NCBI GenBank assembly: GCA_964471385.1
Contig: CAYYFJ010000004.1
Location: 1 to 33,880, forward strand
From: an uncultured Candidatus Saccharibacteria bacterium
GTDB lineage: Bacteria; Patescibacteriota; Minisyncoccia; Minisyncoccales; UBA10102
DNA: 33,880 nt
Reading direction: 5' to 3'
Program-made: the position numbers and the translations under genes
Notes under the pieces: generated by a model
Database searches by the model: none
What the model saw: only the letters and a program-made list of their open reading frames with translations
Told to the model about the DNA's origin: nothing
In this document: in pieces, positions 149 through 33,600 of the stretch
Layout: each line of letters opens with the position of its first letter
Position numbering within the stretch: the first letter of the stretch is position 1

Positions 149-2656
149 ATGCCTTCAAGAACAACACGCAGAGCAGAGTCTGTCGCGCGCGATACGGCAG
201 TGATTGGCGCGCCGATACAAGCGCCATTCAAACCGGAACAGGGTGCTGAAGAAAAAACCCCGTCACATTCGGCGCGGGGAATTGGAGAAAAAAAAGAAAC
301 CGCGTGGGCGCAAGCTTCGTGGCCCGAGAGAATCGCAAAAGCAAGCGTATGCCTGCTGGCGGCGTTATTGCCTTTGTGGTTTTTGCCGTTCACGCAGGAT
401 GTGCTGGCGTATCAAAAGCAGATATTGCTTTTGGCGTTTGTTGTCCTTGCTTCCATTGCGTGGCTCGCTGATAGTATTGGCAAGCAGGAAATTGTTTCTA
501 GAAGGCACGCAGTGCTCGGGTCTCTTGCTTTGCTGGTCGGAGCGGTCGGGATTTCTTCCGCGTTGTCATTGTGGAGCTACGGGAGTTTTTGGGGATTTCC
601 GTTGAACAGCACCGACAGCTTTGCGACTCTTTTTGGGTTTGCCATGCTGTATGTTTTAATCGTTCATGTCTATCGCGAGCCAAAAGAGCTCGCTCTGCCA
701 TACCTTTTGCTTGCAGGATCGCTTTTTCTCGGCACGGCGTTCGCTCTTCTTCAACTGCTCCAGCTTTATATCCTTCCGTTTGCGTTTGCCCGCGCGAGCG
801 TGTTTAACACACTGGGCAGTGTAAATAATATTGCGTTGCTTGCCGCGGCTTTTCTTCCCATGGTTCTCGCGCTTATGTCCGCCGCGCGCTCTTTCATGCG
901 GTGGGCGCTCTTTGGCATTATCCTTTTTTTTGCCGCGTTTCTTGTCCTTGTCAATTTTGCGAGCGCATGGATTGTTTTGCTGGCGGGATTGTCGGCGTTG
1001 ATTGTGTTCGGCATGTGGAATTCTCAAAAGCGGGTTGACTTTAGCCGCGTTTCTTTCCCCATTGTTCTTCTCGCGCTTGCCCTGTTTTTTCTCATGTTCC
1101 GCGTGGCAATTCCCTGGTCCCCGAATATTCCTCTTGAAGTGAGCCCAAGCTTTTCTTCTGAAGTTGAGATTGCAAAGAGCGTGTTGCAAGAGCGTCCCGT
1201 GACCGGATCGGGGCCCGGCACCTTTGTGTTTGATTACGCGAAGCATCATTCAGCGGCTCTGAACCAAACGGTGTTTTGGAGCACTCGTTTTGCTTCGGGA
1301 TCCTCGGAATTGTTTGACTGGGTTGTAACCAAAGGGGCGCTTGGCGCGCTTTCGCTTCTGCTTTTTATCGCGTTTACTTTGCGGCTGGGACTGAAAAATC
1401 TTTTGTCTTTGCCAGAGGATCAGGCAAGCCGGGCGGTAAGCCTGGGAAGTTCCGCGATGTTTGCGGCATTGTCCTTGTCGCTTGCGCTGTACCCCGCGTC
1501 TTTCATCACATGGTTTCTTTTTTGGGCGTCCGCGGCAGGAGTTTTTGCCGCATACGAAGGGCCCGCGCGCGTTTTTTCCATTGCTCCGCCCTCCCGGATT
1601 GCGCTTGCGATTTCATCCGCGTTTTTATTTGTCCTTATCTTCGGCATCGGCTTTTTCTATGTGCAGGGCCAGAAATACACGGCTGACATACGGTACACGC
1701 AGGGGCTTTGGGCGCTTCAAACGGGGAATAACGAAACCGCGATAGCGCGCATGTTTTCGGCAGTGAATCTTAATCCTTCCATTGATATCTATTGGAGGGA
1801 TTTGGCGCAGGTGTATCTTGCGCAGATAGGGCCGTCTTTCTCAAACGAGGCGTTTTCAAAAGAACAGCGCCAGCAGCAGGCGCAGAGCGTCATGGCAAAT
1901 GCTATTGCCGCGGCAAAACGGGCAACAGCGCTTTCACCAAACAATGTGGCAAACTGGAACGTGCTCGGTTTTGTGTACAGGAACCTTGTCGGCATTCCGC
2001 AGGCCGAAGAATTTGCGATATCCAGCTATGAAAAAGCCGCAGAGCTGGAACCGGCTTCCCCGTTTGCGTGGGCGGAAATGGGAAGAGTGTACGCGGCAAG
2101 CGGCCAGAATCTTTCCCTGAAGGGCGAAACAAAATCGCAAAGCGAGGCGGCATACGCAAAAGCGCTTGATGCGCTCGCGAACGCAACCGGCTTAAAATCA
2201 GATTACGCGCCCGCGCATTTTCTTATTGCCACGGTGTATGAAGGGCAGGGAAGGACAGGAGAGGCATCAAGGAAGCTGAAAGAAATTGCAAACATGAACC
2301 CAAGCGATACGGGAATCGCTTTTCAGCTTGGCGTGCTGTATTGGCAGAAAAAAGACATTGAAAGCGCGCAGAAAGAATTTGAACGCGCGAAAACTCTGAA
2401 TCCTTTGTACGCCAATGCGCGGTATATGCTCGGGCTTGTGTATGAAAAACAAGGCAGAATATCTGCGGCAAAGGAAGAATTTGAAGCGGTCTTGAGGCTA
2501 AACCCCAAGAATGAAGAAATAAAAAACATTCTCGCGAATCTTGAAGCGGGGAAGCCGGCTCTTGAAGGAATAGCGCCAAGCCAGCCCCCGGTTTCTGAAA
2601 ATCCGCCTGAAATAAAAACGCAGGAACCAGAACCCGCCCAAAAGAAAGAGAAATAA
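149..2656 (+). CDS. O-antigen-ligase-like polytopic membrane protein fused to C-terminal TPR repeats
   Basis: 835-aa ORF. The N-terminal ~470 aa are multi-pass hydrophobic and Wzy_C-like. The C-terminal ~300 aa are TPR repeats (e.g. NPLYANARYMLGLVYEKQGRISAAKEEFEAVLRLNP). The start codon is uncertain because there is no SD. Confidence 0.7.
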   Translation: MPSRTTRRAESVARDTAVIGAPIQAPFKPEQGAEEKTPSHSARGIGEKKETAWAQASWPERIAKASVCLLAALLPLWFLPFTQDVLAYQKQILLLAFVVLASIAWLADSIGKQEIVSRRHAVLGSLALLVGAVGISSALSLWSYGSFWGFPLNSTDSFATLFGFAMLYVLIVHVYREPKELALPYLLLAGSLFLGTAFALLQLLQLYILPFAFARASVFNTLGSVNNIALLAAAFLPMVLALMSAARSFMRWALFGIILFFAAFLVLVNFASAWIVLLAGLSALIVFGMWNSQKRVDFSRVSFPIVLLALALFFLMFRVAIPWSPNIPLEVSPSFSSEVEIAKSVLQERPVTGSGPGTFVFDYAKHHSAALNQTVFWSTRFASGSSELFDWVVTKGALGALSLLLFIAFTLRLGLKNLLSLPEDQASRAVSLGSSAMFAALSLSLALYPASFITWFLFWASAAGVFAAYEGPARVFSIAPPSRIALAISSAFLFVLIFGIGFFYVQGQKYTADIRYTQGLWALQTGNNETAIARMFSAVNLNPSIDIYWRDLAQVYLAQIGPSFSNEAFSKEQRQQQAQSVMANAIAAAKRATALSPNNVANWNVLGFVYRNLVGIPQAEEFAISSYEKAAELEPASPFAWAEMGRVYAASGQNLSLKGETKSQSEAAYAKALDALANATGLKSDYAPAHFLIATVYEGQGRTGEASRKLKEIANMNPSDTGIAFQLGVLYWQKKDIESAQKEFERAKTLNPLYANARYMLGLVYEKQGRISAAKEEFEAVLRLNPKNEEIKNILANLEAGKPALEGIAPSQPPVSENPPEIKTQEPEPAQKKEK

Positions 2657-2657
2657 T

Positions 2658-2712
2658 GAAATGTCAAATTCCAAAACCCAAATGCCAAATGAAATCCAAA
2701 GTTCAAATGACA
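2658..2712 (+). repeat. Left arm of the AAATGYC heptad-word inverted repeat; overlaps the start of the four-helix-bundle gene
   Basis: AAATGTCAAATTCCAAAACCCAAATGCCAAATGAAATCCAAAGTTCAAATGACAAA. By manual alignment about 41/55 positions are complementary to 3061-3114. Confidence 0.8.
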
Positions 2713-3065
2713 AAAAGTATAATTTAGAGGAACGTACGGCAACATTTGGGGAGCACATCATTGAGTTTGCAAAATCATTGCATCAGAATGCAGTTACTGC
2801 GTCGCTGATTAGTCAATTTGTTCGAGCAGGAACAAGCATCGGAGCGAACTACATGGAAGCAGATGGAGCAGAATCAAGAAGTGATTTTAGACATAAGATA
2901 GCGTTATGTAAGAAAGAATCAAAAGAAACGCGGCACTGGATACGAATGATAGCGAAAGCATGTCCCGAAAGTATCGTTGAATGCCGCAAACTTTGGCAAG
3001 AGGCAGATGAACTCACTCTAATATTCTCTTCTATCCTTCGTTCCAAGAAAAGTGAAAAAATTTGA
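2661..3065 (+). CDS. Four-helix-bundle protein (23S rRNA intervening-sequence protein family, Avd-like)
   Basis: 134-aa ORF. The core LEERTATFGEHIIEF...QFVRAGTSIGANYMEA...DFRHKIALCKKESKETRHWIRMI fits PF05635/TIGR02436-type proteins. The first ~17 aa (MSNSKTQMPNEIQSSND) are encoded by the repeat arm. An alternative start is M8 at 2682. Confidence 0.85.
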   Translation: MSNSKTQMPNEIQSSNDKKYNLEERTATFGEHIIEFAKSLHQNAVTASLISQFVRAGTSIGANYMEADGAESRSDFRHKIALCKKESKETRHWIRMIAKACPESIVECRKLWQEADELTLIFSSILRSKKSEKI

Positions 3066-3114
3066 CATTTGGACTTTGACATTCATTTGACATTTGAAAT
3101 TTGAGTTTTGACAT
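3061..3114 (+). repeat. Right arm of the heptad-word inverted repeat (GRCATTT words); contains the stop codon of the four-helix-bundle gene
   Basis: TTTGACATTTGGACTTTGACATTCATTTGACATTTGAAATTTGAGTTTTGACATT. The TGA stop at 3063-3065 is part of the first TTTGACA word. Confidence 0.8.
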
Positions 3115-3123
3115 TAGCGATTG

Positions 3124-3152
3124 TTGACATTCTTTTTATGATAGTGTACAAT
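3124..3152 (+). promoter_or_regulatory. Sigma70-type promoter upstream of rpoB
   Basis: TTGACA (3124-3129), 17-nt spacer, TACAAT (3147-3152). It would give a ~155-nt leader before rpoB. Confidence 0.5.
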
Positions 3153-10362: not shown

Positions 10363-12561
10363 ATGGCGAAAGTTAAAAAACACAAACATCTGAAACGCCG
10401 CGAAGATGGAACACCCCGCAGGTTTGGAGGAATTGCGCTTCCTGAAAGCGCTCTGCGCATGATATGGGGGATTGCGATGTTCACCGCCGCGCTTATTTTC
10501 GTGTTTGCGTTTTTTCAGAACGCGGGGATTGCGGGAGATTTTTTTCTTCGCACATTCCAGCTGTTTGTCGGAAAGGCGGCGTTTTTCGCCCCGTTTCTTT
10601 TTGTGCTTGCCGGAGCCGTGTTTTTCGGCATGAGGGAATTTAGCGTGTGGACCGTGTTCGCGACCCTGATTTTTCTGTTAGCTGGCATGAGCGGAATGTT
10701 CGCGGTGGTGGCGCGGGGCAATCATCTTGACATTCAGCAGGTGGCGGGACTTCTTGGATTTGCCGTGTCAGCTCCGATAGTGGGCGCGTTCGGCATCTGG
10801 GTGGGCGGCATCATCCTTGCCGCGACTCTCCTCGCTTCGTTAGCGGTGTTTTGGCATTTGATTGAACACGAGTACAGCGAAGGCTTGGGAGCCGCGGGAG
10901 GCGCGCAGGAAAAAATACGGAAAATTTTTGAGCCGAAGTTTGAGGTAAAAGAGTTAGAGCCCGAGCCTAAAATACGCAATGCCATGAGCGCGGAAGCGGA
11001 GAAGCCGCAGGCTCAAAAAACCGGATCGTCAAAACAAAAGAAATTTGAACCCATTCCCGCAATGGCCGGAGACTACAAGTTTCCCCCGGCCGATCTTTTG
11101 GAAGAGGACAAGGGCATTCCAAACGCGGGAGACATTAAAATTTATTCATCTATTATTAAGAAAACCCTCCAGCATTTTGACATTCCCGTGGAACTTTCAG
11201 AGGTGAACATCGGGCCTGCCGTCACGCAGTACGCCATAAAACCGGCAGAAGGGATTAAGCTTTCGCGCATCACCGCCCTGCAGGCGGATTTGTCTCTGGC
11301 TCTTGCGGCCCATCCCATACGCATTGAAGCTCCAATACCCGGCAGGGCTTTGGTTGGCATTGAAATTCCCAACAAGATCCGCGCCACCGTCAGGTTGCGG
11401 GGGCTCATTGAATCCCAGCCGTTTAAGGAATCGCATTCTTCTCTGCTGATTGCGCTGGGCAAAGATGTTTCAGGAAGCCCCATTTTTACCGACCTTGCGA
11501 AAATGCCCCACATGCTGGTGGCGGGCGCCACGGGATCGGGAAAAACAATCGGGCTGAACAATATTATTTTGAGCCTTGTGTACCGCAATTCTCCAAACAC
11601 CCTCCGGTTTATTCTCGTGGATCCCAAGCGCGTGGAATTCCCCGTGTACAACGACCTTCCCCATTTGCTTACCCCCGTTATTTTGGAGAACCAGAAGGTT
11701 CTTAATGTGTTAAAATGGCTGATCAAAGAAATGGAGCGGCGTTTTCAGGCGCTTTCTCAAGTAAGGGCACGCGACATTGGCAGTTATCATGCGCTGTACA
11801 GGGAAAAAGCAAAAGGAGCGGCGGGCGAGGACGAGTGGGAAACCATGCCCTATATCGTGGTTGTTATTGACGAGTTAGCTGATCTGATGGCTTCGCGCGG
11901 CAAAGAGCTTGAAGGCATGATTGTGCGTTTGGCCCAGATGGCTCGGGCCGTGGGCATTCATCTCGTGCTTGCCACCCAGCGCCCGTCTGTGGAAGTTATC
12001 ACCGGACTTATCAAGGCAAACGTAACCGCGAGAGTCGCTTTTCAGGTCGCTTCGCAGGTGGATTCGCGCACCATTTTGGATTCTGCGGGAGCTGAAAAAC
12101 TGCTGGGGCAGGGGGATATGCTCTTTTTATCCACGGAGTTTTCCAAGCCCAAGCGCGTGCAGGGAGCGTATGTGTCAGACAAAGACGTAAAGAAAGTTGT
12201 CGCTTGGATTGCGCAGGAAAACGAACGCGTGGCGCGCCAGGACATTGAGGAAGACGAGCTCTCTCAAAGCGCCATGGAGGGAATGGAAAATATCGGCGCG
12301 GGAGGGACCTCCGAAGAAGACGATCCGCTGTACGAGGAAGCAAAACATGTGGTTGTGGAGTCCAAGCGCGCGTCAGCTTCCCTTCTTCAGCGCCGTCTAA
12401 AGCTCGGATATGCCAGAGCCGCCCGCCTTCTTGACATGATGGAAGAGCGCGGTGTCGTGGGGCCCGGAGAGGGGGCAAAACCAAGGGAAGTGTATATGAA
12501 ATCGGGTCATGTGGAAGAGGAAGACGGAACCCAAAGCGAGTGGACAAGCCCGAAACTTTAA
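10363..12561 (+). CDS. ftsK: DNA translocase FtsK/SpoIIIE
   Basis: N-terminal TM helices, Walker A GATGSGKT, the VVIDELADLM motif and a C-terminal gamma/winged-helix domain (LLQRRLKLGYARAARLLDMMEERGVVG). The track start at 10321 lies inside the rpoC terminator, so ATG 10363 (MAKVKKHK) is preferred. Confidence 0.9.
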   Translation: MAKVKKHKHLKRREDGTPRRFGGIALPESALRMIWGIAMFTAALIFVFAFFQNAGIAGDFFLRTFQLFVGKAAFFAPFLFVLAGAVFFGMREFSVWTVFATLIFLLAGMSGMFAVVARGNHLDIQQVAGLLGFAVSAPIVGAFGIWVGGIILAATLLASLAVFWHLIEHEYSEGLGAAGGAQEKIRKIFEPKFEVKELEPEPKIRNAMSAEAEKPQAQKTGSSKQKKFEPIPAMAGDYKFPPADLLEEDKGIPNAGDIKIYSSIIKKTLQHFDIPVELSEVNIGPAVTQYAIKPAEGIKLSRITALQADLSLALAAHPIRIEAPIPGRALVGIEIPNKIRATVRLRGLIESQPFKESHSSLLIALGKDVSGSPIFTDLAKMPHMLVAGATGSGKTIGLNNIILSLVYRNSPNTLRFILVDPKRVEFPVYNDLPHLLTPVILENQKVLNVLKWLIKEMERRFQALSQVRARDIGSYHALYREKAKGAAGEDEWETMPYIVVVIDELADLMASRGKELEGMIVRLAQMARAVGIHLVLATQRPSVEVITGLIKANVTARVAFQVASQVDSRTILDSAGAEKLLGQGDMLFLSTEFSKPKRVQGAYVSDKDVKKVVAWIAQENERVARQDIEEDELSQSAMEGMENIGAGGTSEEDDPLYEEAKHVVVESKRASASLLQRRLKLGYARAARLLDMMEERGVVGPGEGAKPREVYMKSGHVEEEDGTQSEWTSPKL

Positions 12562-12653
12562 ATCAAATATCAAAAATCAAACATCAAAATCCAATGGAGA
12601 ATGCAAATTTTACATTTTGATATGTCATTTTTATATTTGATTTTTGATTTTTA
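12560..12653. repeat. AT-rich word hairpin (AAATCAA/ATCAAAA variant) in the ftsK-recA spacer
   Basis: Left arm AAATCAAATATCAAAAATCAAACATCAAAATCC. Right arm CATTTTGATATGTCATTTTTATATTTGATTTTTGATTTT. Complementarity is imperfect. Confidence 0.65.
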
Positions 12654-12663
12654 ATTTTTTACT

Positions 12664-13889: not shown

Positions 13890-13898
13890 ATTTTACGT

Positions 13899-13984
13899 AA
13901 TGTCAAATGTCAAAATCCAAATGTCAAATGAATGTTTAAAATCCAAATACTCATTTGACATTTGAGCTTTGGCATTTGGATTTT
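13899..13984. repeat. AAATGYC heptad-word inverted repeat (hairpin) between ssb and rpsR
   Basis: Left arm AATGTCAAATGTCAAAATCCAAATGTCAAATGAATG. Right arm CATTTGACATTTGAGCTTTGGCATTTGGATTTT. The first 37 nt are identical to 32362-32398. Confidence 0.85.
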
Positions 13985-14471
13985 AGAAGGGGATATCTTT
14001 CACGTCAATTTCTTCGTCCTCCTCAATAATGGGAATTTCTTCCACCGATTCCTCTTTTGTCTCTTTTTGCTGGGGCGTTGTTTTGTTGTCCGCCTGAGGG
14101 GCGCGCCCCTCTTCTTTCACAAACGGGACCGATCCGCCTTCGCTTCCTTTGGGCCCTAACTGCAGGCGCTCTGCGATAATTTCGGTGCGGTATTTTTTTA
14201 CGCCTTGGGCGTCCTGCCATGATCGCGTTTCAATTCTTCCCTCCACATACACCAAGGACCCCTTCCTTAAATATTGGGACGCGATTTCGCCAAGCCGTCT
14301 CCATGCGATGACCGTATGGAATTCGGCTTTTGATTGCCTCTGATTGCCAGCGTCCGTCCACACCCTGTTTGTTGCCACGCGCAGATTGCACACGGTCTGA
14401 CCCGAAGGGGTTGAGCGCGTTTCAGGGGTGTCCACCACCCGCCCTATGAGCATGACTTTGTTTAAATCCAT
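13983..14471 (-). CDS. ssb: Single-stranded DNA-binding protein
   Basis: 162-aa ORF with an OB-fold N-terminus (MLIGRVVDTPETR...FHTVIAWRRLGE) and an acidic C-terminal tail ending DIPF. Confidence 0.95.
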   Translation of the reverse strand: MDLNKVMLIGRVVDTPETRSTPSGQTVCNLRVATNRVWTDAGNQRQSKAEFHTVIAWRRLGEIASQYLRKGSLVYVEGRIETRSWQDAQGVKKYRTEIIAERLQLGPKGSEGGSVPFVKEEGRAPQADNKTTPQQKETKEESVEEIPIIEEDEEIDVKDIPF

Positions 14472-14480
14472 AGTTTACCT

Positions 14481-14573
14481 AATGCCAAATATCAAAATCC
14501 AAAATCTCAATACTCATTTGACATTTGAACTTTAGATTTCATTTGACATTTGAGTTTTGGCATTTGGATTTTT
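14481..14573. repeat. AAATGYC heptad-word inverted repeat between rpsF and ssb
   Basis: Left arm AATGCCAAATATCAAAATCCAAAATCTCAATACT. Right arm CATTTGACATTTGAACTTTAGATTTCATTTGACATTTGAGTTTTGGCATTTGGATTTTT. Confidence 0.85.
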
Positions 14574-14578
14574 CAAAC

Positions 14579-17546: not shown

Positions 17547-17568
17547 ATAATGAATAACCAACAAATTT

Positions 17569-17622
17569 AAATATCAAAATCCAAATAGCCAATTTGACAT
17601 TTGAACTTTGGATTTTGGATTT
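17569..17622. repeat. Short AAATGYC-family hairpin between RNase J and trpS
   Basis: AAATATCAAAATCCAAATAGCC / AATTTGACATTTGAACTTTGGATTTTGGATTT. Confidence 0.75.
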
Positions 17623-17630
17623 ATATTTTA

Positions 17631-19347: not shown

Positions 19348-19434
19348 TGGTGCCCGGAGGGAGAGTTGAACTCCCAAGGGCTTGCGCCCACAGCGCCCTG
19401 AACGCTGCGTGTTTGCCAATTTCACCACCCGGGC
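19348..19434 (-). tRNA. tRNA-Leu (anticodon CAG), class II, CCA encoded
   Basis: The reverse complement folds by hand: acceptor GCCCGGG/TCCGGGC, anticodon stem CAGCG/CGCTG with loop TTCAGGG, long variable arm, T-arm GGGAG TTCAACT CTCCC, discriminator A plus CCA. Confidence 0.9.
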
Positions 19435-19442
19435 ATTGAGCT

Positions 19443-21539
19443 TCATTTGACATTTGGACTTTGGATTTCATTTGGCATTTGAGCTTTGGCATTTGGATTT
19501 TTCCATATTCTCCCTGTTCTTATATACCAGTCTGCAATGCCGGAGAACCTTTGGGAGGGGTCGGCGATTATCTGCTCTGTAATGCCGCGAATGTCGTCTG
19601 CCGCAATGTACACATAGTGGGTGTCATACAGAAAAATCGCGGGAATATCCTGCAGAAGCACATTCTGAAATTCTTCCAGTTTTTTATTTCTTGCTTCTTC
19701 GTCCAATTCTTTTCTTGCGGATTCAAGCAAAGCATCCGCTTTTTTATTTTCATATCCTGAAAGATTGAGCCCGGGATCCCGCTTTTGCGAGGAATGCCAG
19801 AAGGGAAACAAATCGGGTATTTTCCCGAGAATTTCTCCGAACAACAGCATCTGGAAATTTCTTGGTTTTATCACGTCGTGCTCAAGATCGGAAGGAGAGT
19901 ATGCTTGAACCTCCGCTTGAATGCCAAAATCTTTCCACTGGCCTGCGATTGCTTCCGCGATATCAAGCAGGGGCGGCTGGTTTACGGTCGCAATGCTCAC
20001 GCTCAGAGGAAGATTTTCTCGGCTTGTAAAGCAAAGCATGTTGAGTTTTTCTCTTGTCGCTCCCGCGACTTTTCCCGTGCCCTTGTTCAGCCCTTGGGGA
20101 GCCAGAATATCGTCCGCGTATTTTTCCTGGAAACGAATCACCGCTTCTTTGGTTGCCGCGTCAAACGTTCCAGAAATTTTTCCCGACGGATAGAGTTCCG
20201 CGTCTTTCGCGAGGCACTCCTGCAGTTTTTTCACGTCCGCGCTTTTATTTCCCTGAACCAGCGTGCTTTGTATGCCGTCCCCGCTTTTTTTTGCGGGAGG
20301 AAACCACATTCCATTCTCTTTTTTGTATCCTTTTGACAGCAGAATGCGCTCCGCGCGCTCAGTGTTTTTTGTCTGCAGGAGCGCCGGCTCTGCCAGTTTA
20401 AAAATGCCGGGCAATGCGGGGGACGAGACAATGCGGCCATGGTTTTTCAATATCGCGCTTGTCAAAGCTTCTTTGTCAATTGAGTCTGCGAGCGCCTGGC
20501 GCATGTCCCGCGACTTCACAATGTCCTGATCGTTCAGGGAGTTCAGGTTGAAAAAAATGGCAAAGTATCTTGGCAAAGAGAACGAATACACATTCAGCCC
20601 GTCTGTTTTTACCCGCTGGATATCCTGCACGGAGTGGATGGAAAAAACGTCCAGCAGTCCCTGGTTTGCCGCCGCGATCAGTTCTTTTTCATCGGGAAAA
20701 AAGCGGAACGCAGTTGACTGAATGTATGGTTTTTTCCCGTAGTATTCTTTGAATCCGCGCAGCCGAATTTCTTTGATTGCTCCCGTGCGTTCCTGGCTTA
20801 TGCCAGATACCCGGTACGGCCCCGTTCCCACAGGCTCAAGATTGTACATAGAAAGCGCGAAGTTCTCCGGAGCTACGGATTTCCAGATGTGAGAGGGAAG
20901 AATTTTGAGCGTGAGCCGTTCTAAAAACGGAGCGTAAGGTTCTTTGAGCTCAAAGCGGACACGATCATTTGTGATTTTTTCAGCCCTCACGCCAATCCAG
21001 TTCGTGCGTATGGGGCTTTTGTATTTTGGGTTCTGCACGGTTTCCACCGTGAAGATTACATCGTCTGCCGTGAACGGTTTTCCATCATGCCACACCGCTT
21101 CTTCTCTGAGGTTGAATTCAATCACCTTTCCTCCCTCTTCCACGGTGAAATCTTTTGCCAGATCCGGGACCAGCTTTCCCGCGTTGTCGTATGTAAGCAG
21201 TCCCGAATACACAAGCTGGACAAGATCGCGGTCTGCATCGTACGCATCCGCGTACAAGGGGTTGATATACCGTGGAAAGCCGACAATTCCTTCTGTGAAC
21301 GATCCCCCCTGCACGGGAATTTCTCTTGTGCTTGCGATGTACAGCCGTCCCAAAAGAAACGTGAAAGACGCGACAGACAGCGCAAGAAACAAAGAAAACA
21401 GTATTCTCTCTTTTTTTGACAACACAGATGGAAATTTTTTCCACTGGGCAAAGGTAGGAAATCTCTTTCCTTCTTTTAACTCGCCGTATTGTCTTTGTAA
21501 TTGTTTAATCCAGTCTTTCGCCTGTTGAAACGTAAACAC
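19443..21539 (-). CDS. Family-5 (peptide/nickel type) ABC substrate-binding protein with N-terminal membrane anchor and inserted peptidoglycan-binding-like domain
   Basis: 698-aa ORF with a GTG start. It has an SBP_bac_5-like core and a PG_binding_1-like segment (ADVKKLQECLAKDAELYPSGKISGTFDAATKEAVIRFQEKY). The last 19 codons are encoded by the heptad repeat. Confidence 0.75.
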   Translation of the reverse strand: MFTFQQAKDWIKQLQRQYGELKEGKRFPTFAQWKKFPSVLSKKERILFSLFLALSVASFTFLLGRLYIASTREIPVQGGSFTEGIVGFPRYINPLYADAYDADRDLVQLVYSGLLTYDNAGKLVPDLAKDFTVEEGGKVIEFNLREEAVWHDGKPFTADDVIFTVETVQNPKYKSPIRTNWIGVRAEKITNDRVRFELKEPYAPFLERLTLKILPSHIWKSVAPENFALSMYNLEPVGTGPYRVSGISQERTGAIKEIRLRGFKEYYGKKPYIQSTAFRFFPDEKELIAAANQGLLDVFSIHSVQDIQRVKTDGLNVYSFSLPRYFAIFFNLNSLNDQDIVKSRDMRQALADSIDKEALTSAILKNHGRIVSSPALPGIFKLAEPALLQTKNTERAERILLSKGYKKENGMWFPPAKKSGDGIQSTLVQGNKSADVKKLQECLAKDAELYPSGKISGTFDAATKEAVIRFQEKYADDILAPQGLNKGTGKVAGATREKLNMLCFTSRENLPLSVSIATVNQPPLLDIAEAIAGQWKDFGIQAEVQAYSPSDLEHDVIKPRNFQMLLFGEILGKIPDLFPFWHSSQKRDPGLNLSGYENKKADALLESARKELDEEARNKKLEEFQNVLLQDIPAIFLYDTHYVYIAADDIRGITEQIIADPSQRFSGIADWYIRTGRIWKNPNAKAQMPNEIQSPNVK
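19444..19502. repeat. Single (unpaired) GRCATTT arm of the heptad-word family, overlapping the 3' end of the SBP gene
   Basis: CATTTGACATTTGGACTTTGGATTTCATTTGGCATTTGAGCTTTGGCATTTGGATTTTT. I saw no opposing arm. It abuts tRNA-Leu. Confidence 0.8.
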
Positions 21540-21578
21540 TGTGCGAGATTTTTAGTTGTTGTAAAAGCAACAGCGCAA

Positions 21579-21656
21579 AGTATCCAGTATTGAGTATGCA
21601 GTATGCAGTATTCAGTATTCAGTATGCAGAATACTCTATACTGTATACTGAATACT
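21579..21656. repeat. Hairpin made of tandem CAGTATK heptamers and their complement
   Basis: AGTATCCAGTATTGAGTATGCAGTATGCAGTATTCAGTATTCAGTATGCAG followed by AATACTCTATACTGTATACTGAATACT. The right arm is about 23/27 complementary to 21586-21612. Confidence 0.8.
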
Positions 21657-21661
21657 AGAGT

Positions 21662-21904
21662 TCAGAAGCGGAGACTTGCTATAGAGAGTCCCGCGAAAAG
21701 AATCAAGAGAACAATGGTTGCCCAGAAAAGTTTTTCCTGAATACCCCTTCTTGTCGCGTAAAATCCGCTGTCTCCCCCCATGCCCAAACCCAAAGCGGTT
21801 CCCCTTTGCTGAAGAAGAATGGCAATAATCATGAGTGTGGCAGTTCCGATTTGGGCAATCGTCAAATACGTCATTGGAAACAAGAGAAAAAAGTTCAATC
21901 TCAA
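21662..21904 (-). CDS. secG: Preprotein translocase subunit SecG
   Basis: Two-TM small protein with ILLQQRGTALGLGMGG, the typical SecG loop. The true start may be M11 (21874). Confidence 0.75.
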   Translation of the reverse strand: MRLNFFLLFPMTYLTIAQIGTATLMIIAILLQQRGTALGLGMGGDSGFYATRRGIQEKLFWATIVLLILFAGLSIASLRF

Positions 21905-24129: not shown

Positions 24130-24161
24130 GAGACACACGGAGTGTGTCTCCGACACGAAAT
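24130..24161 (-). repeat. Left copy of a perfect 32-nt inverted repeat (ATTTCGTGTCGGAGACACACTCCGTGTGTCTC)
   Basis: The reverse complement of 24130-24161 is identical to 27623-27654. It is itself a hairpin (GAGACACAC-GGA-GTGTGTCTC). Confidence 0.9.
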
Positions 24162-24194
24162 CGAAAAAATGTCAAAAAAATTGAGTAAGTAAGT

Positions 24195-24731: not shown

Positions 24732-27599
24732 ATGGATCAGACCATAAAAATTCGGGGGGCAAGGGTGCACAATCTCAAAAATATTGACGTTGACATTCCA
24801 AAAAACAAACTCGTGGTGTTCACGGGAATTTCGGGTTCCGGAAAAAGCTCCCTCGCCTTCGACACGCTGTATGCCGAGGGGCAGAGGCGGTACGTGGAAA
24901 GTTTGTCAGCATATGCGCGCCAGTTTTTGGGCGTTATGGACAAGCCCGATGTTGACAACATTGAAGGCATAAGCCCGGCCATTGCCATTGACCAAAGAAA
25001 AGGCGCCCATAACCCTCGTTCCACCGTGGGAACTGTGACGGAGATTTATGATTATCTCCGGCTTTTGTTTTCGCGCGCGGGCATTCCCCGCTGTCCCAAA
25101 TGCAAAAAAGAAGTGAAGCGGCAGAACGCGAGCCAGATAGCCGACCAGATTCTTCAGCTTCCCGTAGGTTCTGAAATTGCGATTTTAGGCCCTGTGTTGC
25201 GCGACCGCAAGGGGGAGCATCGCGGCATTCTGGAGGAAATCCAGAAAGGAGGGTTTGTAAGGGTGCGCGTGGACGGCACGGTGCATCGCGTTGAGGAGCT
25301 TCTTTTGCAGGAGCTTGACCGCAAGCGCAAGCATACCATTGAAGTGGTGGTGGACCGGCTGGTGATGGGGGAAGAACTGGACAGGCCGCGGCTTTCAGAT
25401 TCGGTGGAGACGGCGTTAAAACTGGGGAAAGGAACAGTCGTCGTTGCAACGACAAGTTCCAATAACCAAGAAACAATAACCAAGCAAATTCAAAATCACA
25501 AACTTCAAACGCAAAACGACATACTGTTTTCAGAGAAGTTTGCGTGCGAGGAATGCGGAATGAGTTTGCCTGAAATTGAGCCGAGATTGTTTTCGTTTAA
25601 CTCGCCTCACGGGGCATGCCCCTCCTGTCAGGGGCTTGGAGAAAAACTTGAGGTGGATCCCCAGCTTGTGATTCCAAATCCCCGTCTTTCCATTGGAGAG
25701 GGAGCGATTTTCCCTTGGGCGCGCGCTTCCCATAAAATTGGAAGGCAGGGATTTTTCTGGTGGAAGCTGGAAGAACTTGCAAAGCAAAACAATTTTTCTC
25801 TTTCAGTCCCTGTCAAAGATCTGCCCAAGAACATCCTAAATCTTATTTTGCGCGGCGACGGCAATTTTGAAGGAGTAATTCCGTGGCTTGAGCGCAGATT
25901 CCATGAAACCGATTCAGAATACGCAAGAGAAGAAATAGAGCAGTACATGGTGGAAAAAGTATGCGAACAGTGCAAAGGGAAACGGTTAAAACCCGAAGCT
26001 CTTGCCGTGACAGTCGCGGGAAAACAGATTGACGAAATTACTGGCGCTCAACTGAACGGCGCGCATGAATTTTTCCGCGCTCTTTCCCGGAAGCCAGACG
26101 AGAAAGACGGCACACGCAAAAAAACAGACTCATTGTCCGCGGGGGAATATAAAATCGCCCAGCCTATTGTGAAGGAAATTCTGAACCGCATCCAGTTTTT
26201 AATTGATGTGGGATTGGAATATCTGACGCTCGGACGCAAAGCAGGGACGTTATCTGGCGGAGAAGAGCAAAGAATTCGCTTAGCCACGCAGATTGGCTCC
26301 AAACTGACAGGCGTTCTTTATATATTAGACGAGCCTTCCATTGGTTTGCACGCGAGAGATCAGGGGCGGCTTATTAAAACGCTGAAAGAATTGCGCGACT
26401 TGGGCAACACGGTTGTCGTGGTGGAGCACGACGAGCAGACCATTCAGAATGCTGACTGGATTATTGACGTGGGGCCGGGAGCCGGCAAACACGGGGGGCG
26501 CGTTGTGTTTGCGGGCACGCCAAAACAGCTGGAAAAATCAGACACACTGACGGGAGAATATGTGTCGGGGAGGAGGAGAGTGGAGAGTAATTCAAAAGTG
26601 CAAGTCAAAATTCAAAAGTATTTGATCATTAAGGGGGCGAGGGAGAATAATCTGAAAAACATTGATGTGAAAATTCCTCTGGGGAAATTTGTGTGCGTCA
26701 CAGGAGTGTCGGGGTCCGGGAAAAGCTCGCTTGTGAATGATATTGTCGCAAAAGCTCTGCTGAAAAAGTTTTATCGCGCGAAAGAAACGCCGGGAGCGCA
26801 TAAAAATATCATAGGAACCGAGCATATAGACAAAGTGGTGCTGGTTGACCAGTCGCCCATAGGCAGGACGCCCCGCTCCAACCCCGCCACTTACACGGGA
26901 GCATTCACTGTGGTTCGCGATTTGTTTGTCGCGACAAGAGAAGCGAGGACGCGGGGATACGGAGCCGGACGTTTTTCTTTTAACGTGAAAGGAGGGCGGT
27001 GCGAGGCCTGCGAGGGGCAGGGGCTGAAGAAAATTGAGATGTATTTTTTGCCAGATGTATATGTGGAATGCGAGGAGTGCCATGGAACCAGATACACGAA
27101 AGAAGTTTTGGAGATTGAGTACAAAGAAAAAAACATTGCGCAGACGCTTGCCATGACTGTGGAGGAGGCGCTTGAATTTTTCAAAAACATTCCGGCTCTT
27201 GCCGCGAAACTGAAAACGCTCAACGATGTCGGGTTGGGATACGTCCAGTTGGGCCAGCCAGCTCCCTCGCTTTCAGGAGGAGAGGCGCAGAGAGTGAAGC
27301 TTGCAACCGAGCTTGCAAAAAAAGCAACCGGCAAAACGCTGTATATATTGGACGAACCGACAACCGGTCTGCATTTTGACGATGTGAAAAAACTTTTGCA
27401 CGTGCTTTCAGAGCTTGTTTCAAAAGGCAACACCGTGCTGGTGATTGAGCACAATATGGATTTAATCCGCAACGCCGACTGGATTATTGACCTTGGTCCC
27501 GAAGGGGGAGAAAAGGGAGGCTCTATTATTGCGGAAGGCGCTCCAGCGGACATTGCAAAAAACAAAAGGAGTTATACCGGACAATATCTAAACTATTAA
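24732..27599 (+). CDS. uvrA: Excinuclease ABC subunit A
   Basis: 955-aa ORF with two ABC ATPase modules ([12 protein letters not shown] and [11 protein letters not shown] Walker A; LSGGEEQR and LSGGEAQR signatures) and zinc-finger Cys clusters. Confidence 0.97.
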
Positions 27600-27622
27600 G
27601 AAAAATCTTTGACAGATAACCA

Positions 27623-27658
27623 ATTTCGTGTCGGAGACACACTCCGTGTGTCTCCGAC
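27623..27658 (+). repeat. Right copy of the 32-nt inverted repeat; forms a 13-bp hairpin 31 nt after the uvrA stop
   Basis: GTCGGAGACACAC-TCC-GTGTGTCTCCGAC (27630-27658). There is no U-tract, so a terminator role is uncertain. Confidence 0.9.
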
Positions 27659-31456: not shown

Positions 31457-32362
31457 ATGACGCTTTATTCTTATGCTGAATCCAACATCCGCAAAACGTG
31501 GCTGTATCTGGCAGGGTTTTTTGTCCTGCTGATTGGTTTGGGCTGGCTATTCAGCGCTTACTACAAGAGTCCAACGATTCTGTGGTTCGCGGTTTTGTTG
31601 AGCACGGCCATGAGCGTGGCGTCGTATTGGTTTTCAGATTCCATAGCGCTTTCCATGAGCGGAGCAAAGCCGATTAAAAAGGAAGACAATCCCGAGCTGT
31701 ACCGCATTGTGGAAAATCTTGCCATAACCGCGGGCCTTCCCACACCTGCTGTTTTCATTATTAATGATGCCCAACCCAATGCGTTTGCAACCGGCCGCGA
31801 TCCAAAGCACGCGGTGGTTGCCGTAACGACAGGACTATTGGAGCGATTGGAACGCGCGGAGCTTGAAGGAGTCATCGCGCACGAGTTTGCGCATATCGGA
31901 AACCGCGATGTTCTGCTTGCAACCGTTATTGTGGTTCTGGTCGGCATTGTCGCTTTATTGTCTGATTTCTTTTTCCGCATCACATGGTATGGCGGAAGGG
32001 GGCGTTCGCGCGACGACAACCGGGGACAGCTTGGCGTTCTATTGCTTGTCGTGTCCATTGTTGCCGCGATTGTAGCTCCGCTTGCCGCGAACCTGATAAA
32101 GCTTGCGATTTCGCGCAAGCGCGAGTTTTTAGCAGACGCTTCGGGCGCGCTTTTGACGCGGTATCCCGAGGGGCTTGCAAAGGCGCTGGAGAAAATATCC
32201 GCATTTTCCGGCCAATTGCGCGCCGCAAACCACGCGACCGCGCACTTGTACATTGCCAGCCCTTTTCGCGGCAAAGAATCCGTGGGCTGGTTTCAAAAGC
32301 TGTTCACGACCCACCCGCCCATTGCAGAGCGCATTGCCGCCCTCAGAGGAATGAAGATATAA
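31457..32362 (+). CDS. htpX: M48 family zinc metalloprotease HtpX
   Basis: 301-aa ORF with TM helices, the HEFAH zinc motif (IAHEFAHIGNRD) and C-terminal THPPIAERI. Confidence 0.92.
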   Translation: MTLYSYAESNIRKTWLYLAGFFVLLIGLGWLFSAYYKSPTILWFAVLLSTAMSVASYWFSDSIALSMSGAKPIKKEDNPELYRIVENLAITAGLPTPAVFIINDAQPNAFATGRDPKHAVVAVTTGLLERLERAELEGVIAHEFAHIGNRDVLLATVIVVLVGIVALLSDFFFRITWYGGRGRSRDDNRGQLGVLLLVVSIVAAIVAPLAANLIKLAISRKREFLADASGALLTRYPEGLAKALEKISAFSGQLRAANHATAHLYIASPFRGKESVGWFQKLFTTHPPIAERIAALRGMKI

Positions 32363-32473
32363 ATGTCAAATGTCAAAATCCAAATGTCAAATGAATGTCA
32401 AAGCTCAAAGTCAAAATAGCCCATTTGCCCATTTGTACTTTATTTGAAATTTGATATTGAGATTTTGGATTTA
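32361..32473. repeat. AAATGYC heptad-word inverted repeat between htpX and the zinc-ribbon gene
   Basis: Left arm AAATGTCAAATGTCAAAATCCAAATGTCAAATGAATGTCAAAGCTCAAAGTCAAAATAGCC. Right arm CATTTGCCCATTTGTACTTTATTTGAAATTTGATATTGAGATTTTGGATTT. Confidence 0.85.
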
Positions 32474-32480
32474 GTTATAT

Positions 32481-33077: not shown

Positions 33078-33362
33078 ATGTATTATGTTTATATTATTCA
33101 AAGCACTCAAAATAAAAAACTTTATAAGGGAATAACAGAAGATTTGAGAAGTAGAATGCAAGAGCATAATCGTGGGTGTACGCTGTCAACGAAATCTGGT
33201 ATTCCTTGGAGGCTAGTTTATTATGAAGCATTTTTAAATAAAACTGATGCTAAGAGAGAGGAAATTTTTTTAAAATCTGGAAAAGGAAGAGAGCGCATTC
33301 ATTATTTGCTAAAGTATACTTTGAAAAAAGGAAATAGGGTCAATCATGGAGGGGTCGCATAG
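33078..33362 (+). CDS. Small GIY-YIG nuclease family protein (UPF0213/COG2827-like)
   Basis: 94-aa ORF (YYVYIIQS...KLYKGITEDLRSRMQEHN...WRLVYYEAF...A.REE..LKS). The segment is clearly more AT-rich than its neighbours. The last 5 codons plus the stop overlap the tRNA-Ser 5' end. Confidence 0.8.
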   Translation: MYYVYIIQSTQNKKLYKGITEDLRSRMQEHNRGCTLSTKSGIPWRLVYYEAFLNKTDAKREEIFLKSGKGRERIHYLLKYTLKKGNRVNHGGVA

Positions 33363-33434
33363 TGGCCTAGTGCGGTTGCTTGGAAAGCAACTATGTCCGA
33401 AAGGGCATCGCGAGTTCAAATCTCGCCCCCTCCG
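33348..33434 (+). tRNA. tRNA-Ser (anticodon GGA), class II, CCA not encoded
   Basis: Hand fold: acceptor GGAGGGG/CCCCTCC, anticodon stem GTTGC/GCAAC with loop TTGGAAA, long variable arm ATGTCC-GAAA-GGGCAT, T-arm GCGAG TTCAAAT CTCGC, discriminator G. Confidence 0.9.
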
Positions 33435-33600
33435 CAGTGAGCGAAGCGAACAAGGAAGAGGGAGTGGGCAAACTGCTTTGCCCACATTGGGATGAGAAGC
33501 CCGGAGCGATGAGCGAGTTCTCCCGAAGGAAGCCGAGGGAGAGGCGAGCGCCGCGAGGGCCGGTTCAGAGGAAATTGCCGTCAGGCAATTTACCGAAGGA

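Follow-up and report, generated by a model that had tools for sequence, protein, structure and literature searches.

An S23p-family gene enclosed by inverted heptamer arrays ahead of rpoB in a Candidatus Saccharibacteria genome, a probable copy of a mobile cassette

The stretch analysed here, 33,880 nt from an uncultured Candidatus Saccharibacteria bacterium (contig CAYYFJ010000004.1 of assembly GCA_964471385.1; hereafter the window), carries a small gene for a four-helix-bundle (4HB) protein of the S23p family, the family of the intervening sequences (IVSs) of 23S rRNA. The gene sits between a membrane-protein gene with tetratricopeptide (TPR) repeats and the promoter of rpoB, and is enclosed by two inverted arms built of imperfect 7-nt words. 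We refer to the two arms and the open reading frame (ORF) together as the cassette, and all coordinates are those of the window. The features of the site are the following:

149..2656 (+), upstream host gene, a membrane protein with C-terminal TPR repeats
2656..2721 (+), 5' arm, AAATGTC AAATTCC AAAACCC AAATGCC AAATGAAATCC AAAGTTC AAATGAC, recognized as inverted repeat, by profile and by lag-7 periodicity
2661..3065 (+), 4HB gene (S23p / 23S_rRNA_IVP / TIGR02436), with the folded core at residues 22-127 (~2724-3041)
3061..3120 (+), 3' arm, TTTGACA TTTGGAC TTTGACA TTCATTTGACA TTTGAAA TTTGAGT TTTGACA TT, complement of the 5' arm
3124..3152 (+), rpoB promoter TTGACA-17-TACAAT, beginning 4 nt past the 3' arm, with 11/12 consensus matches

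The ORF of 134 aa (2661-3065, + strand) and the arms are tightly interlocked. A repeat search of the window defined inverted arms of 55 nt at 2660-2714 and 3061-3115, which are 78% complementary and separated by 346 nt, in good agreement with the ~75% over 55 nt (2658-2712 and 3061-3114) of the initial annotation. Direct reading of the sequence confirmed that the arms bracket the gene exactly, as had been claimed: the start ATG at 2661 falls within the arm word gaaATGTCAAAT (ATGTCAAAT), and the stop TGA (3063-3065) falls within TTTGACA (3061-3067), the first word of the right arm. The recorded gene call (P0001) begins at M8 (2682), giving 127 aa, so that a look-up of the exact 134-aa sequence gave no match; both starts, 2661 and 2682, lie within the 5' arm, which encodes residues 1-18 of the ORF, a stretch without codon-position pattern.

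Each arm consists of about seven ordered imperfect heptamers over ~55 nt, with CAAANNN words in the 5' arm and the complementary words in the 3' arm. The unit lengths are 7,7,7,7,11,7,7 in the 5' arm and 7,7,7,11,7,7,7 in the 3' arm, so that each contains one 11-nt unit. An nhmmer profile built from the arms of 79 other genomes recognizes the 5' arm with an E-value of 4e-15 and matches the 3' arm on the minus strand with an E-value of 1.2e-11. The word AAATGYCAAA occurs 21 times in the window, compared to 0.77 expected and a maximum of 4 in 100 dinucleotide-preserving shuffles. The order TPR-4HB-rpoB is identical in one contig of a metagenome-assembled genome (MAG) at NCBI and in five independent Logan assemblies; found six times over, the arrangement is no assembly artefact.

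The 4HB protein matches both PF05635 (E 1.1e-13; 51.7 bits against a cut-off of 33.8) and TIGR02436 (E 3.4e-19; 69 bits against a cut-off of 24). Its AlphaFold2 model, with a predicted local distance difference test (pLDDT) score of 85.9, consists of four helices (residues 22-39, 46-68, 73-100 and 102-127) preceded by a disordered segment of residues 1-18. Structural similarity search of the model using Foldseek revealed a close resemblance to 2RLD (E 4e-5; target-normalised TM-score 0.86) and to 2GSC (target-normalised TM-score 0.83). A sequence search of the PDB also returned 2RLD (E 7e-17), an entry of five chains, and the S23p protein 2GSC forms a homopentameric toroid according to the citation given in PMC4990558. 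The structures of Avd, the accessory protein of diversity-generating retroelements (DGRs), come as the third-best structural class (4DWL and 8UBE; TM-scores ~0.55-0.75). Profile matches and Foldseek thus agree with the family originally assigned, a 4HB protein of the 23S-rRNA-IVS/S23p type with Avd as a more distant structural relative.

The published conserved motif of the family, GxxRxxxSxxxNxxE (PMC3936711), is present as R-x3-S-x3-N-x2-E, with R55, S59, N63 and E66 in VRAGTSIGANYMEA and the leading G replaced by Q. Every sequence of the homologue alignment has N63 and E66, and conservation reaches at least 90% at R55 and S59. The entropy at the three codon positions is 0.70/0.52/1.46 in the core, which indicates purifying selection on the protein, compared to 1.19/1.08/1.21 in the arm-encoded residues 1-18, which indicates none at the protein level. 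Judged from this variation, the first 18 residues are simply translated arm.

The arms accompany the gene well beyond this genome. A protein search returned 2943 relatives, the best 120 of which share 64-76% identity; the source-named members of these 120 belong to Nitrospirae, Proteobacteria, Actinobacteria and Patescibacteria. The N-terminus common to the close relatives, MSNxKAQMSNEIQSSNDKK, is the translated 5' arm, and some C-termini run into the 3' arm. A genome scan with the 4HB query gave 80 homologous loci in more than ten phyla, at a protein identity of 54-76%. When the 5' region of each locus was aligned with the reverse complement of its own 3' region, the score was 18.3, compared to 8.1 (maximum 12) for shuffled sequences and 8.3 for 343 control ORFs in the same loci, and 93% of the 80 homologues lay above the 95th percentile of the controls. 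The outliers among the controls are mostly further divergent PF05635 genes with words of their own, such as GATGCAG in L024 and CTCAAAT in L076. The median stem has 49 aligned positions with 37 matches, and extends from 61 to 13 nt before the codon of the conserved Tyr20 and from 7 to 56 nt past the stop codon. The 3' arm is homologous to the reverse complement of the 5'-arm profile in 58/80 loci, and more than 70 loci of many phyla have a 5' arm that aligns collinearly with the gene's conserved 5' end, the order of the words being kept.

Self-identity is best at lag 7 in 65/80 5' arms and 61/80 3' arms, compared to 0/80 ORF interiors. A strict lag-7 detector (at least 77% identity over 35 nt) missed imperfect arms and caught coding periodicity; the bracket score and the profiles were used instead. 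Lag-7 inverted arrays on both sides of the gene were also found in 13/13 distant members (30-38% identity) from cultured Cyanobacteria, Bacteroidota, Chloroflexota, Firmicutes and Spirochaetota, which use other words, for example:

Nostoc flagelliforme, (AATTCAA)4 / (TTTTGAA)4
Planktothrix, AATCCCC and AATCGTA with their complement
Euhalothece, (TGGTCAC)6
Nostoc HK-01, GAGGTCG
Treponema, GAAAGNG

Thus, the check proposed in the initial annotation, whether homologues are systematically flanked by arms, came out positive for the 80 loci and the 13 distant members alike, and the stem-plus-ORF layout outside rRNA that it described is real and general. In Planktothrix, arrays of the A type run right up to start codons, and those of the T type start at stop codons. 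Two strains that are ~97% identical over the aligned region differ by 7-nt and 21-nt indels within the arrays; by this comparison, the arms evolve through gain and loss of 7-nt units. The Planktothrix plasmids offered no empty site, with the insert present in 3/3 strains. The identical copies in Nostoc flagelliforme were considered as evidence of transposition and rejected, as they sit in a duplicated plasmid backbone.

Among loci in unrelated contexts, nucleotide similarity spans from the outer edge of the 5' arm to a point in or just after the 3' arm, as exemplified by L030 and L053 of one MAG, and by L011 compared to L041, L015 and L073. The unit recurring across unrelated contexts is therefore the arms plus the ORF. 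The upstream neighbour is co-oriented with the cassette in 69/76 loci (baseline 0.76, p 0.001), and about half of the 5' arms begin no more than 20 nt from the stop codon of the upstream gene. The copies in cultured taxa are wedged in operons, mostly of defence systems (cas2|cas1, csx2|cas1, hsdS|hsdR, drmD|pglX, helicase|methylase and DUF1156|HEPN), and a further insertion site there is a resistance-nodulation-division (RND) adaptor|permease pair. Searches for a vector of horizontal spread identified none: phage genomes gave no close homologue and two weak partial matches, and plasmids gave relatives at 30-38% identity only. The Rfam scan found only a tRNA in the window, and no rRNA in the 37 homologous loci scanned.

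Some features of these neighbourhoods may be recorded here. Among the neighbours of the close homologues (L007-L086), genes of type IV pili are the most frequent, with pilin at 8 loci, PilC-like at 3 and PilT-like at 3. These families were judged from the sequences themselves, without a profile search; the pilin gene is mostly downstream of the cassette. The plasmid loci with copies in defence operons are L167, L173, L175, L177, L169, L179 and L182, and in L177 the 4HB ORF is missing from the plasmid gene table.

Besides the cassette, the window contains five hairpins of similar arms without an ORF, and one solo arm:

12560..12657, ftsK / recA, ORF-less hairpin with degenerate arms, from the repeat search, with a weak profile match
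13895..13986, recA / ssb, ORF-less hairpin of back-to-back arms, DNA fold z -4.98
14478..14574, ssb / rpsF, ORF-less hairpin with a short A arm and a long T arm, 14515-14574 nhmmer E 6e-13
17563..17624, trpS / RNase J gene, short ORF-less hairpin, 17592-17624 nhmmer E 8e-4
32359..32475, htpX / zinc-ribbon gene, ORF-less hairpin, nhmmer E 2e-9 for 32359-32409 and E 2e-3 for 32428-32475
19445..19504 (-), solo arm, 90% complementary to the 5' arm of the cassette, nhmmer E 6e-14

In the hairpin between recA and ssb, 13895-13948 matches as a plus-strand arm (E 7e-8) and 13951-13986 as a minus-strand arm (E 3e-6). The profile was built solely from the 79 other genomes, and its matches to the repeats of the window are near-full-length and collinear. 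Orphan arms are common where the cassette occurs, with 36 matches in 19 cassette-bearing loci besides the window (~546 kb), compared to 4 in 710 kb of cassette-free rpoB loci. In close pairs an A arm is always followed by a T arm (10 ORF-less and 34 ORF-bearing pairs, compared to 0 reversed). Moreover, at 12559, 32360, 14579 and 17631 the A arms of the ORF-less hairpins start no more than ~10 nt from the stop codons of the co-oriented ftsK, htpX, rpsF and RNase J genes, respectively, a placement that mirrors the position of the cassette after the TPR stop codon.

Given the collinearity, across phyla, of the 5' arm with the gene's conserved 5' end, we read the ORF-less hairpins and the solo arm as MITE-like (miniature inverted-repeat transposable element) arms-only derivatives of the same cassette family, which sequence comparison makes quite likely. 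The initial annotation had noted back-to-back arms without an ORF, and these are the five hairpins listed above; its pattern of an ORF-carrying master copy with derivatives also fits, in that the foreign-arm profile matches the ORF-less copies with E-values of 1e-13 to 1e-3. The solo arm may represent a cassette that was truncated, or the insertion of an arm into the end of a gene. It forms the last ~19 codons of an SBP_bac_5 gene (19446-21539, - strand), the C-terminus of which, ...KNPNAKAQMPNEIQSPNVK before the stop codon, is the same peptide as the N-terminus of the 4HB protein; tRNA-Leu(CAG) (19348-19434, - strand) comes directly after it. The ssb gene (13983-14471, - strand) has a complete ORF-less hairpin at either end, and is the sole non-4HB gene in the window that is bracketed in this way.

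The cassette is co-oriented with both the TPR gene and rpoB. The TPR stop codon TAA (2654-2656) lies 4 nt ahead of the ATG at 2661 and, on profile coordinates, just overlaps the start of the arm. An RpoB scan of metagenomes provided 80 relatives at 69-80% RpoB identity, and a 4HB gene within 4 kb of rpoB was found in 0/80 of them. In about 45/80 the TPR gene lies directly upstream of rpoB without the 4HB gene, and most of these have a TTGACA-type promoter shortly after the TPR stop codon. As 0/80 relatives have the gene near rpoB, the cassette is an insertion specific to this lineage, placed between the TPR stop codon and the -35 box of rpoB.

The TPR-rpoB intergenic site gathers several unrelated small palindromic inserts in the relatives (L087-L166): ccccgttagaagtc elements in L099 and L146, ggaggtccgacctc in L161 and L166, and others in L133 and L134. 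An ORF-less heptamer hairpin occupies the same TPR-rpoB spot in L094 as the cassette does in the window. The location beside a promoter in both cases raises the possibility that TTGACA (-35) boxes are the target of insertion. The relatives also share a conserved 'accctaaaa...ttagggt' leader hairpin ahead of rpoB. Upstream of the TPR gene in the window, a 10-mer, in most cases AAGGGAGACT, is repeated in tandem about seven times at positions 38-107, the copies at the ends being variants.

Altogether, we consider it probable, on balance, that 2656-3120 is one copy of a widespread and horizontally mobile S23p cassette, of the IVS type and located outside rRNA. The foreign-arm profile recognizes the hairpins of the window, which argues that the arms travel with the gene.

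Several observations weigh against this interpretation. The window encodes neither a transposase nor a reverse transcriptase, and the 148 neighbours of the 80 loci include no recurrent one, so that mobility is deduced from distribution and is mechanistically unexplained. No target-site duplication is evident at L030/L053 or at the boundaries of other copies, and there is no alignable pair of filled and empty sites. At the rpoB site the closest relatives have only 80% RpoB identity, which leaves the insertion undatable and its junctions unalignable. In addition, the query that ranked the loci included the arm-encoded N-terminus and may favour loci with a 5' arm; the 3'-arm evidence and the set of cultured taxa are not subject to it. 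The low complexity of the arms may inflate alignment scores, and the nhmmer bias corrections on arm matches amount to 10-16 bits.

The pairing of the arms is a further point of reserve. The arms of the cassette pair in both the minimum free energy and the centroid RNA folds (z -3.2). Nevertheless, the left arm of the window pairs at 90% with foreign arms, compared to 78% with its own right arm. Across genomes own arms do beat foreign ones (z 0.82, Wilcoxon p 1.5e-7): the in-register identity is 0.665 for own pairs, a value reached in 0/2000 permutations, compared to 0.637 for permuted pairs, and the own 3' arm matches 26% of the departures from the consensus, compared to 20%. This locus-specific covariation is significant but small. 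Among the arms of homologous loci there is also no excess of G.U mismatches on the sense strand (162, compared to 188 A.C). With no G.U bias and better pairing to foreign arms, selection for this particular RNA stem is undemonstrated. The expectation of the initial annotation that own arms would be more complementary than unrelated ones therefore fails in this genome and survives modestly across genomes. From the sequences compared, the complementarity of the arms mainly reflects the family consensus; by analogy with rRNA IVSs, a selected RNA stem is plausible.

The layout suggests how such a cassette might work. We propose that it has no promoter of its own and would be read through from the upstream gene; the arms would then pair in the transcript to form an imperfect ~50-bp duplex that closes the ORF into a loop, and RNase III would cut the stem, as in rRNA IVSs, and detach the insert from the host transcript. 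Modelled on the IVSs, this course of read-through, looping and RNase III-type cutting has in our estimation an even chance of being correct. RNase III detachment would explain the tolerance of the cassette right behind stop codons, inside operons and inside rRNA. The 4HB protein, a pentameric ring in solved relatives, might bind the heptamers in its own arms as well as those in the orphan copies. Binding of tandem heptamers at one word per subunit, in the manner of the trp RNA-binding attenuation protein (TRAP), is a tentative suggestion that we put forward with some doubt. Such word-specific binding would explain the linkage between gene and arms as well as the different words among paralogues of one genome.

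Since no transposase, integrase or reverse transcriptase accompanies the cassette, the DNA has to move by way of functions of the host. Either recombination into existing hairpins, guided by homology of the arms, or insertion at hairpin tips might serve. In its broadest form, the proposal would make the S23p/TIGR02436 pentamer the missing trans-acting partner of bacterial heptamer repeats (STRR, TAACTGA, GGGAATC and similar), of which each subunit would read one word. The gene and its inverted arrays would be a self-propagating cassette that seeds arms-only copies beside host genes, and the whole a horizontally mobile protein-repeat system of most phyla, present also in rRNA, as IVSs, and in defence operons; we regard this extension as speculative and rather unlikely to hold in full.

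Among the alternatives, the one that survives best takes the 4HB protein as a trans-acting host regulator of heptamer arrays, whose own arrays would be autoregulatory and whose orphan hairpins would be cis-regulatory sites. The orphan arrays fit tightly between stop and start codons of housekeeping genes in the window, and the Planktothrix arrays abut start codons (A-type) and stop codons (T-type). Published arrays also lie just upstream of start codons, where translational control through a binding partner not identified there has been proposed (PMC4679880; 10.1101/2022.06.06.494920). The purifying selection on the protein core and the use of different words among paralogues of one genome would suit a regulator as well. 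However, the gene is absent at this site in 80/80 relatives, the contexts share the arms plus ORF only, and copies wedged into unrelated operons, at an identity of 54-76% across phyla, behave as a mobile element does and not as a regulator inherited vertically would. We consider this explanation unlikely on its own, and the two models are not mutually exclusive.

A mobile cassette is also preferable to a scheme in which the hairpins are indigenous REP-like (repetitive extragenic palindrome) or terminator-like repeats of the host, and an unrelated gene landed in one of the loops, the arms being target and not cargo. Such an origin would account for the arms of this genome being no more complementary to each other than to those of other loci, for the ORF-less hairpin of L094 at the identical site, and for the several kinds of palindromic inserts that the TPR-rpoB site gathers. 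Insertions in the rRNA of the candidate phyla radiation (CPR), including those encoding the IVS protein (IVP), are likewise located at tops or bases of stem-loops (PMC11270868). Against it, more than 70 loci of many phyla keep the 5' arm collinear with the gene's conserved 5' end, a profile of foreign arms recognizes the hairpins of this genome, and the gene-less relatives are nearly free of such arms, with the 4 matches in 710 kb given above. An arm that served only as target is therefore quite improbable.

A role of the 4HB protein as component or modulator of defence systems is suggested by the cultured-taxon copies between cas, hsd, drm/pgl, helicase/methylase and DUF1156/HEPN genes, and by reports of the family in cas loci (PMC3936711, PMC10910872). 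It seems very unlikely, given that the window has housekeeping genes only and no PADLOC match, that the neighbours in the 80 homologous loci are diverse with pilin as the commonest, and that selfish insertion accounts equally well for the wedging into operons. Still less credible is a DGR remnant with the protein as its Avd: the structural similarity to 4DWL and 8UBE is real, yet neither a reverse transcriptase nor a pair of template and variable repeats occurs in the window or among the neighbours, and the closest structures are the S23p proteins 2RLD and 2GSC. Chance similarity of low-complexity A/T-rich sequence, to which the low complexity of the arms and the nhmmer bias corrections would lend themselves, is practically negligible in view of the 21 word occurrences against 0.77 expected, the arm score of 18.3 against 8.1 for shuffled sequences and 8.3 for control ORFs, the arm-specific lag-7 periodicity and the word order kept across phyla. 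An integron gene cassette was also considered and rejected, with arms on both sides of the ORF, no cassette array and no integrase.

Of the known systems, the cassette closely resembles the S23p IVSs of 23S rRNA (Coxiella burnetii, Leptospira and the Xanthomonas/Brucella type), in which a PF05635 ORF is enclosed by stem-forming inverted repeats, the distribution is sporadic and apparently horizontal, and no mobility enzyme is encoded. The IVS of Coxiella has an S23p ORF and a terminal-repeat stem that is cut by RNase III; just before the S23p ATG lie three tandem heptamers, which vary in number among strains, and RNase III cuts at the first (PMC4990558). The cassette of the window shares these tandem heptamers immediately ahead of the ATG. 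It differs in location, lying between protein-coding genes, whereas the S23p IVSs lie in helix 25 or 45 of 23S rRNA. Its arms are ~50-nt heptamer arrays on both sides, compared to a near-perfect 28-bp stem; the 5' arm is partly translated and there are dispersed arms-only copies, unlike in S23p IVSs; and the protein is under purifying selection, whereas the Coxiella ORF is decaying. IVP genes have also been found wedged in cas loci (PMC3936711) and in rRNA insertions of the CPR (PMC11270868).

The arms themselves resemble the bacterial heptamer repeats. In cyanobacteria, such short tandemly repeated repetitive (STRR) sequences were reportedly described by Mazel et al. in 1990. TAACTGA repeats are known from Beggiatoaceae, Cyanobacteria and Bacteroidetes (PMC4679880), and GGGAATC and GGGGATT repeats from Xanthomonas and Nostoc (PMC4692102). 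Like the arms, heptamer repeats lie between genes, in arrays that count from 3 to more than 10 imperfect 7-nt units. The arrays often come as inverted pairs and often border on start or stop codons; they use lineage-specific words, are suspected to spread horizontally, and have no known mechanism or binding partner. Unlike the reported repeats, the arrays described here bracket one gene family, with fixed polarity and with a word order that is conserved in the subfamily. The reports on these repeats tie the arrays to no protein or gene: the terms S23, 23S and four-helix are absent from the text of PMC4679880, and S23 and four-helix from that of PMC4692102.

MITEs and the small palindromic repeats (REP/BIME, Correia/NEMIS, ERIC and the Rickettsia palindromic elements) share with the cassette family imperfect terminal inverted repeats and many short non-coding copies beside gene ends. 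As in these elements, an outward-facing arm carries TTGACA words beside a promoter and, as in the Rickettsia palindromic elements, read-through into coding sequence occurs, the solo arm extending the SBP gene. By contrast, neither the window nor the set of recurrent neighbours at the 80 loci includes a cognate transposase or REP-associated tyrosine transposase (RAYT), and no target-site duplication was evident at the copy boundaries compared; the arms are 7-nt periodic, and the 'master' copy carries a non-enzymatic 4HB protein.

Avd is likewise a four-helix bundle that forms a pentameric barrel in solved relatives, and its pentamer acts on an RNA in which the sequences on either side of a looped-out central segment pair with each other (10.1101/2023.10.23.563531). 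Unlike Avd, the present protein comes without reverse transcriptase or template/variable repeats and is nearer to S23p (2RLD, 2GSC) in both sequence and structure. TRAP reads triplet repeats. It serves here as an analogy for the mode of binding, not as a homologue: a homo-oligomeric ring would read one short repeat per subunit on a single strand. Its fold is unrelated, and heptamer binding by the 4HB protein is purely hypothetical.

In a full-text search of incomplete coverage, PF05635, TIGR02436 or S23p was linked to heptamer arrays nowhere beyond the Coxiella note, and we did not find the heptamer-arm architecture of the S23p cassette described in the searchable literature. The "undescribed system" of the initial annotation is therefore upheld for this architecture and not for the rest, as S23p genes in stems, the heptamers of Coxiella (PMC4990558) and IVP genes in cas loci (PMC3936711) had been published.

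Three further features of the window may be mentioned. A different heptamer hairpin, with CAGTATG/CAGTATT and then CTGTATA/CTGAATA words, lies at 21576-21660 between the start of the SBP gene and an ORF at 21819, with no 4HB gene nearby. A 47-nt inverted pair (24130-24176 and 27608-27654; 87% complementary) brackets uvrA (24732-27599), and each copy holds the palindrome GAGACACACGGAGTGTGTCTC and ends in a TGTCAAA/TTTGACA word. Finally, a 94-aa GIY-YIG ORF (33078-33362) overlaps the 5' end of tRNA-Ser(GGA) (33348-33435).

Catalogues of heptamer repeats go back decades for Cyanobacteria, and Xanthomonas, Beggiatoaceae and Bacteroidetes were added later, while their function, partner and route of spread have not been established. 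The S23p/IVP family, in turn, has solved structures and no known function, and is found in rRNA IVSs and in CRISPR and restriction loci. In our comparison set, the gene and the inverted heptamer arrays occur together as a rule, the words vary by lineage and paralogue, and arms-only copies accompany them. For annotation, this would mean that the MSNxKAQMSNEIQSSNDKK tails on thousands of database proteins are translated repeat and not a protein domain. It also suggests why 4HB genes sit harmlessly inside rRNA and operons, and it may link the long-unexplained heptamer repeats of bacteria to a protein.

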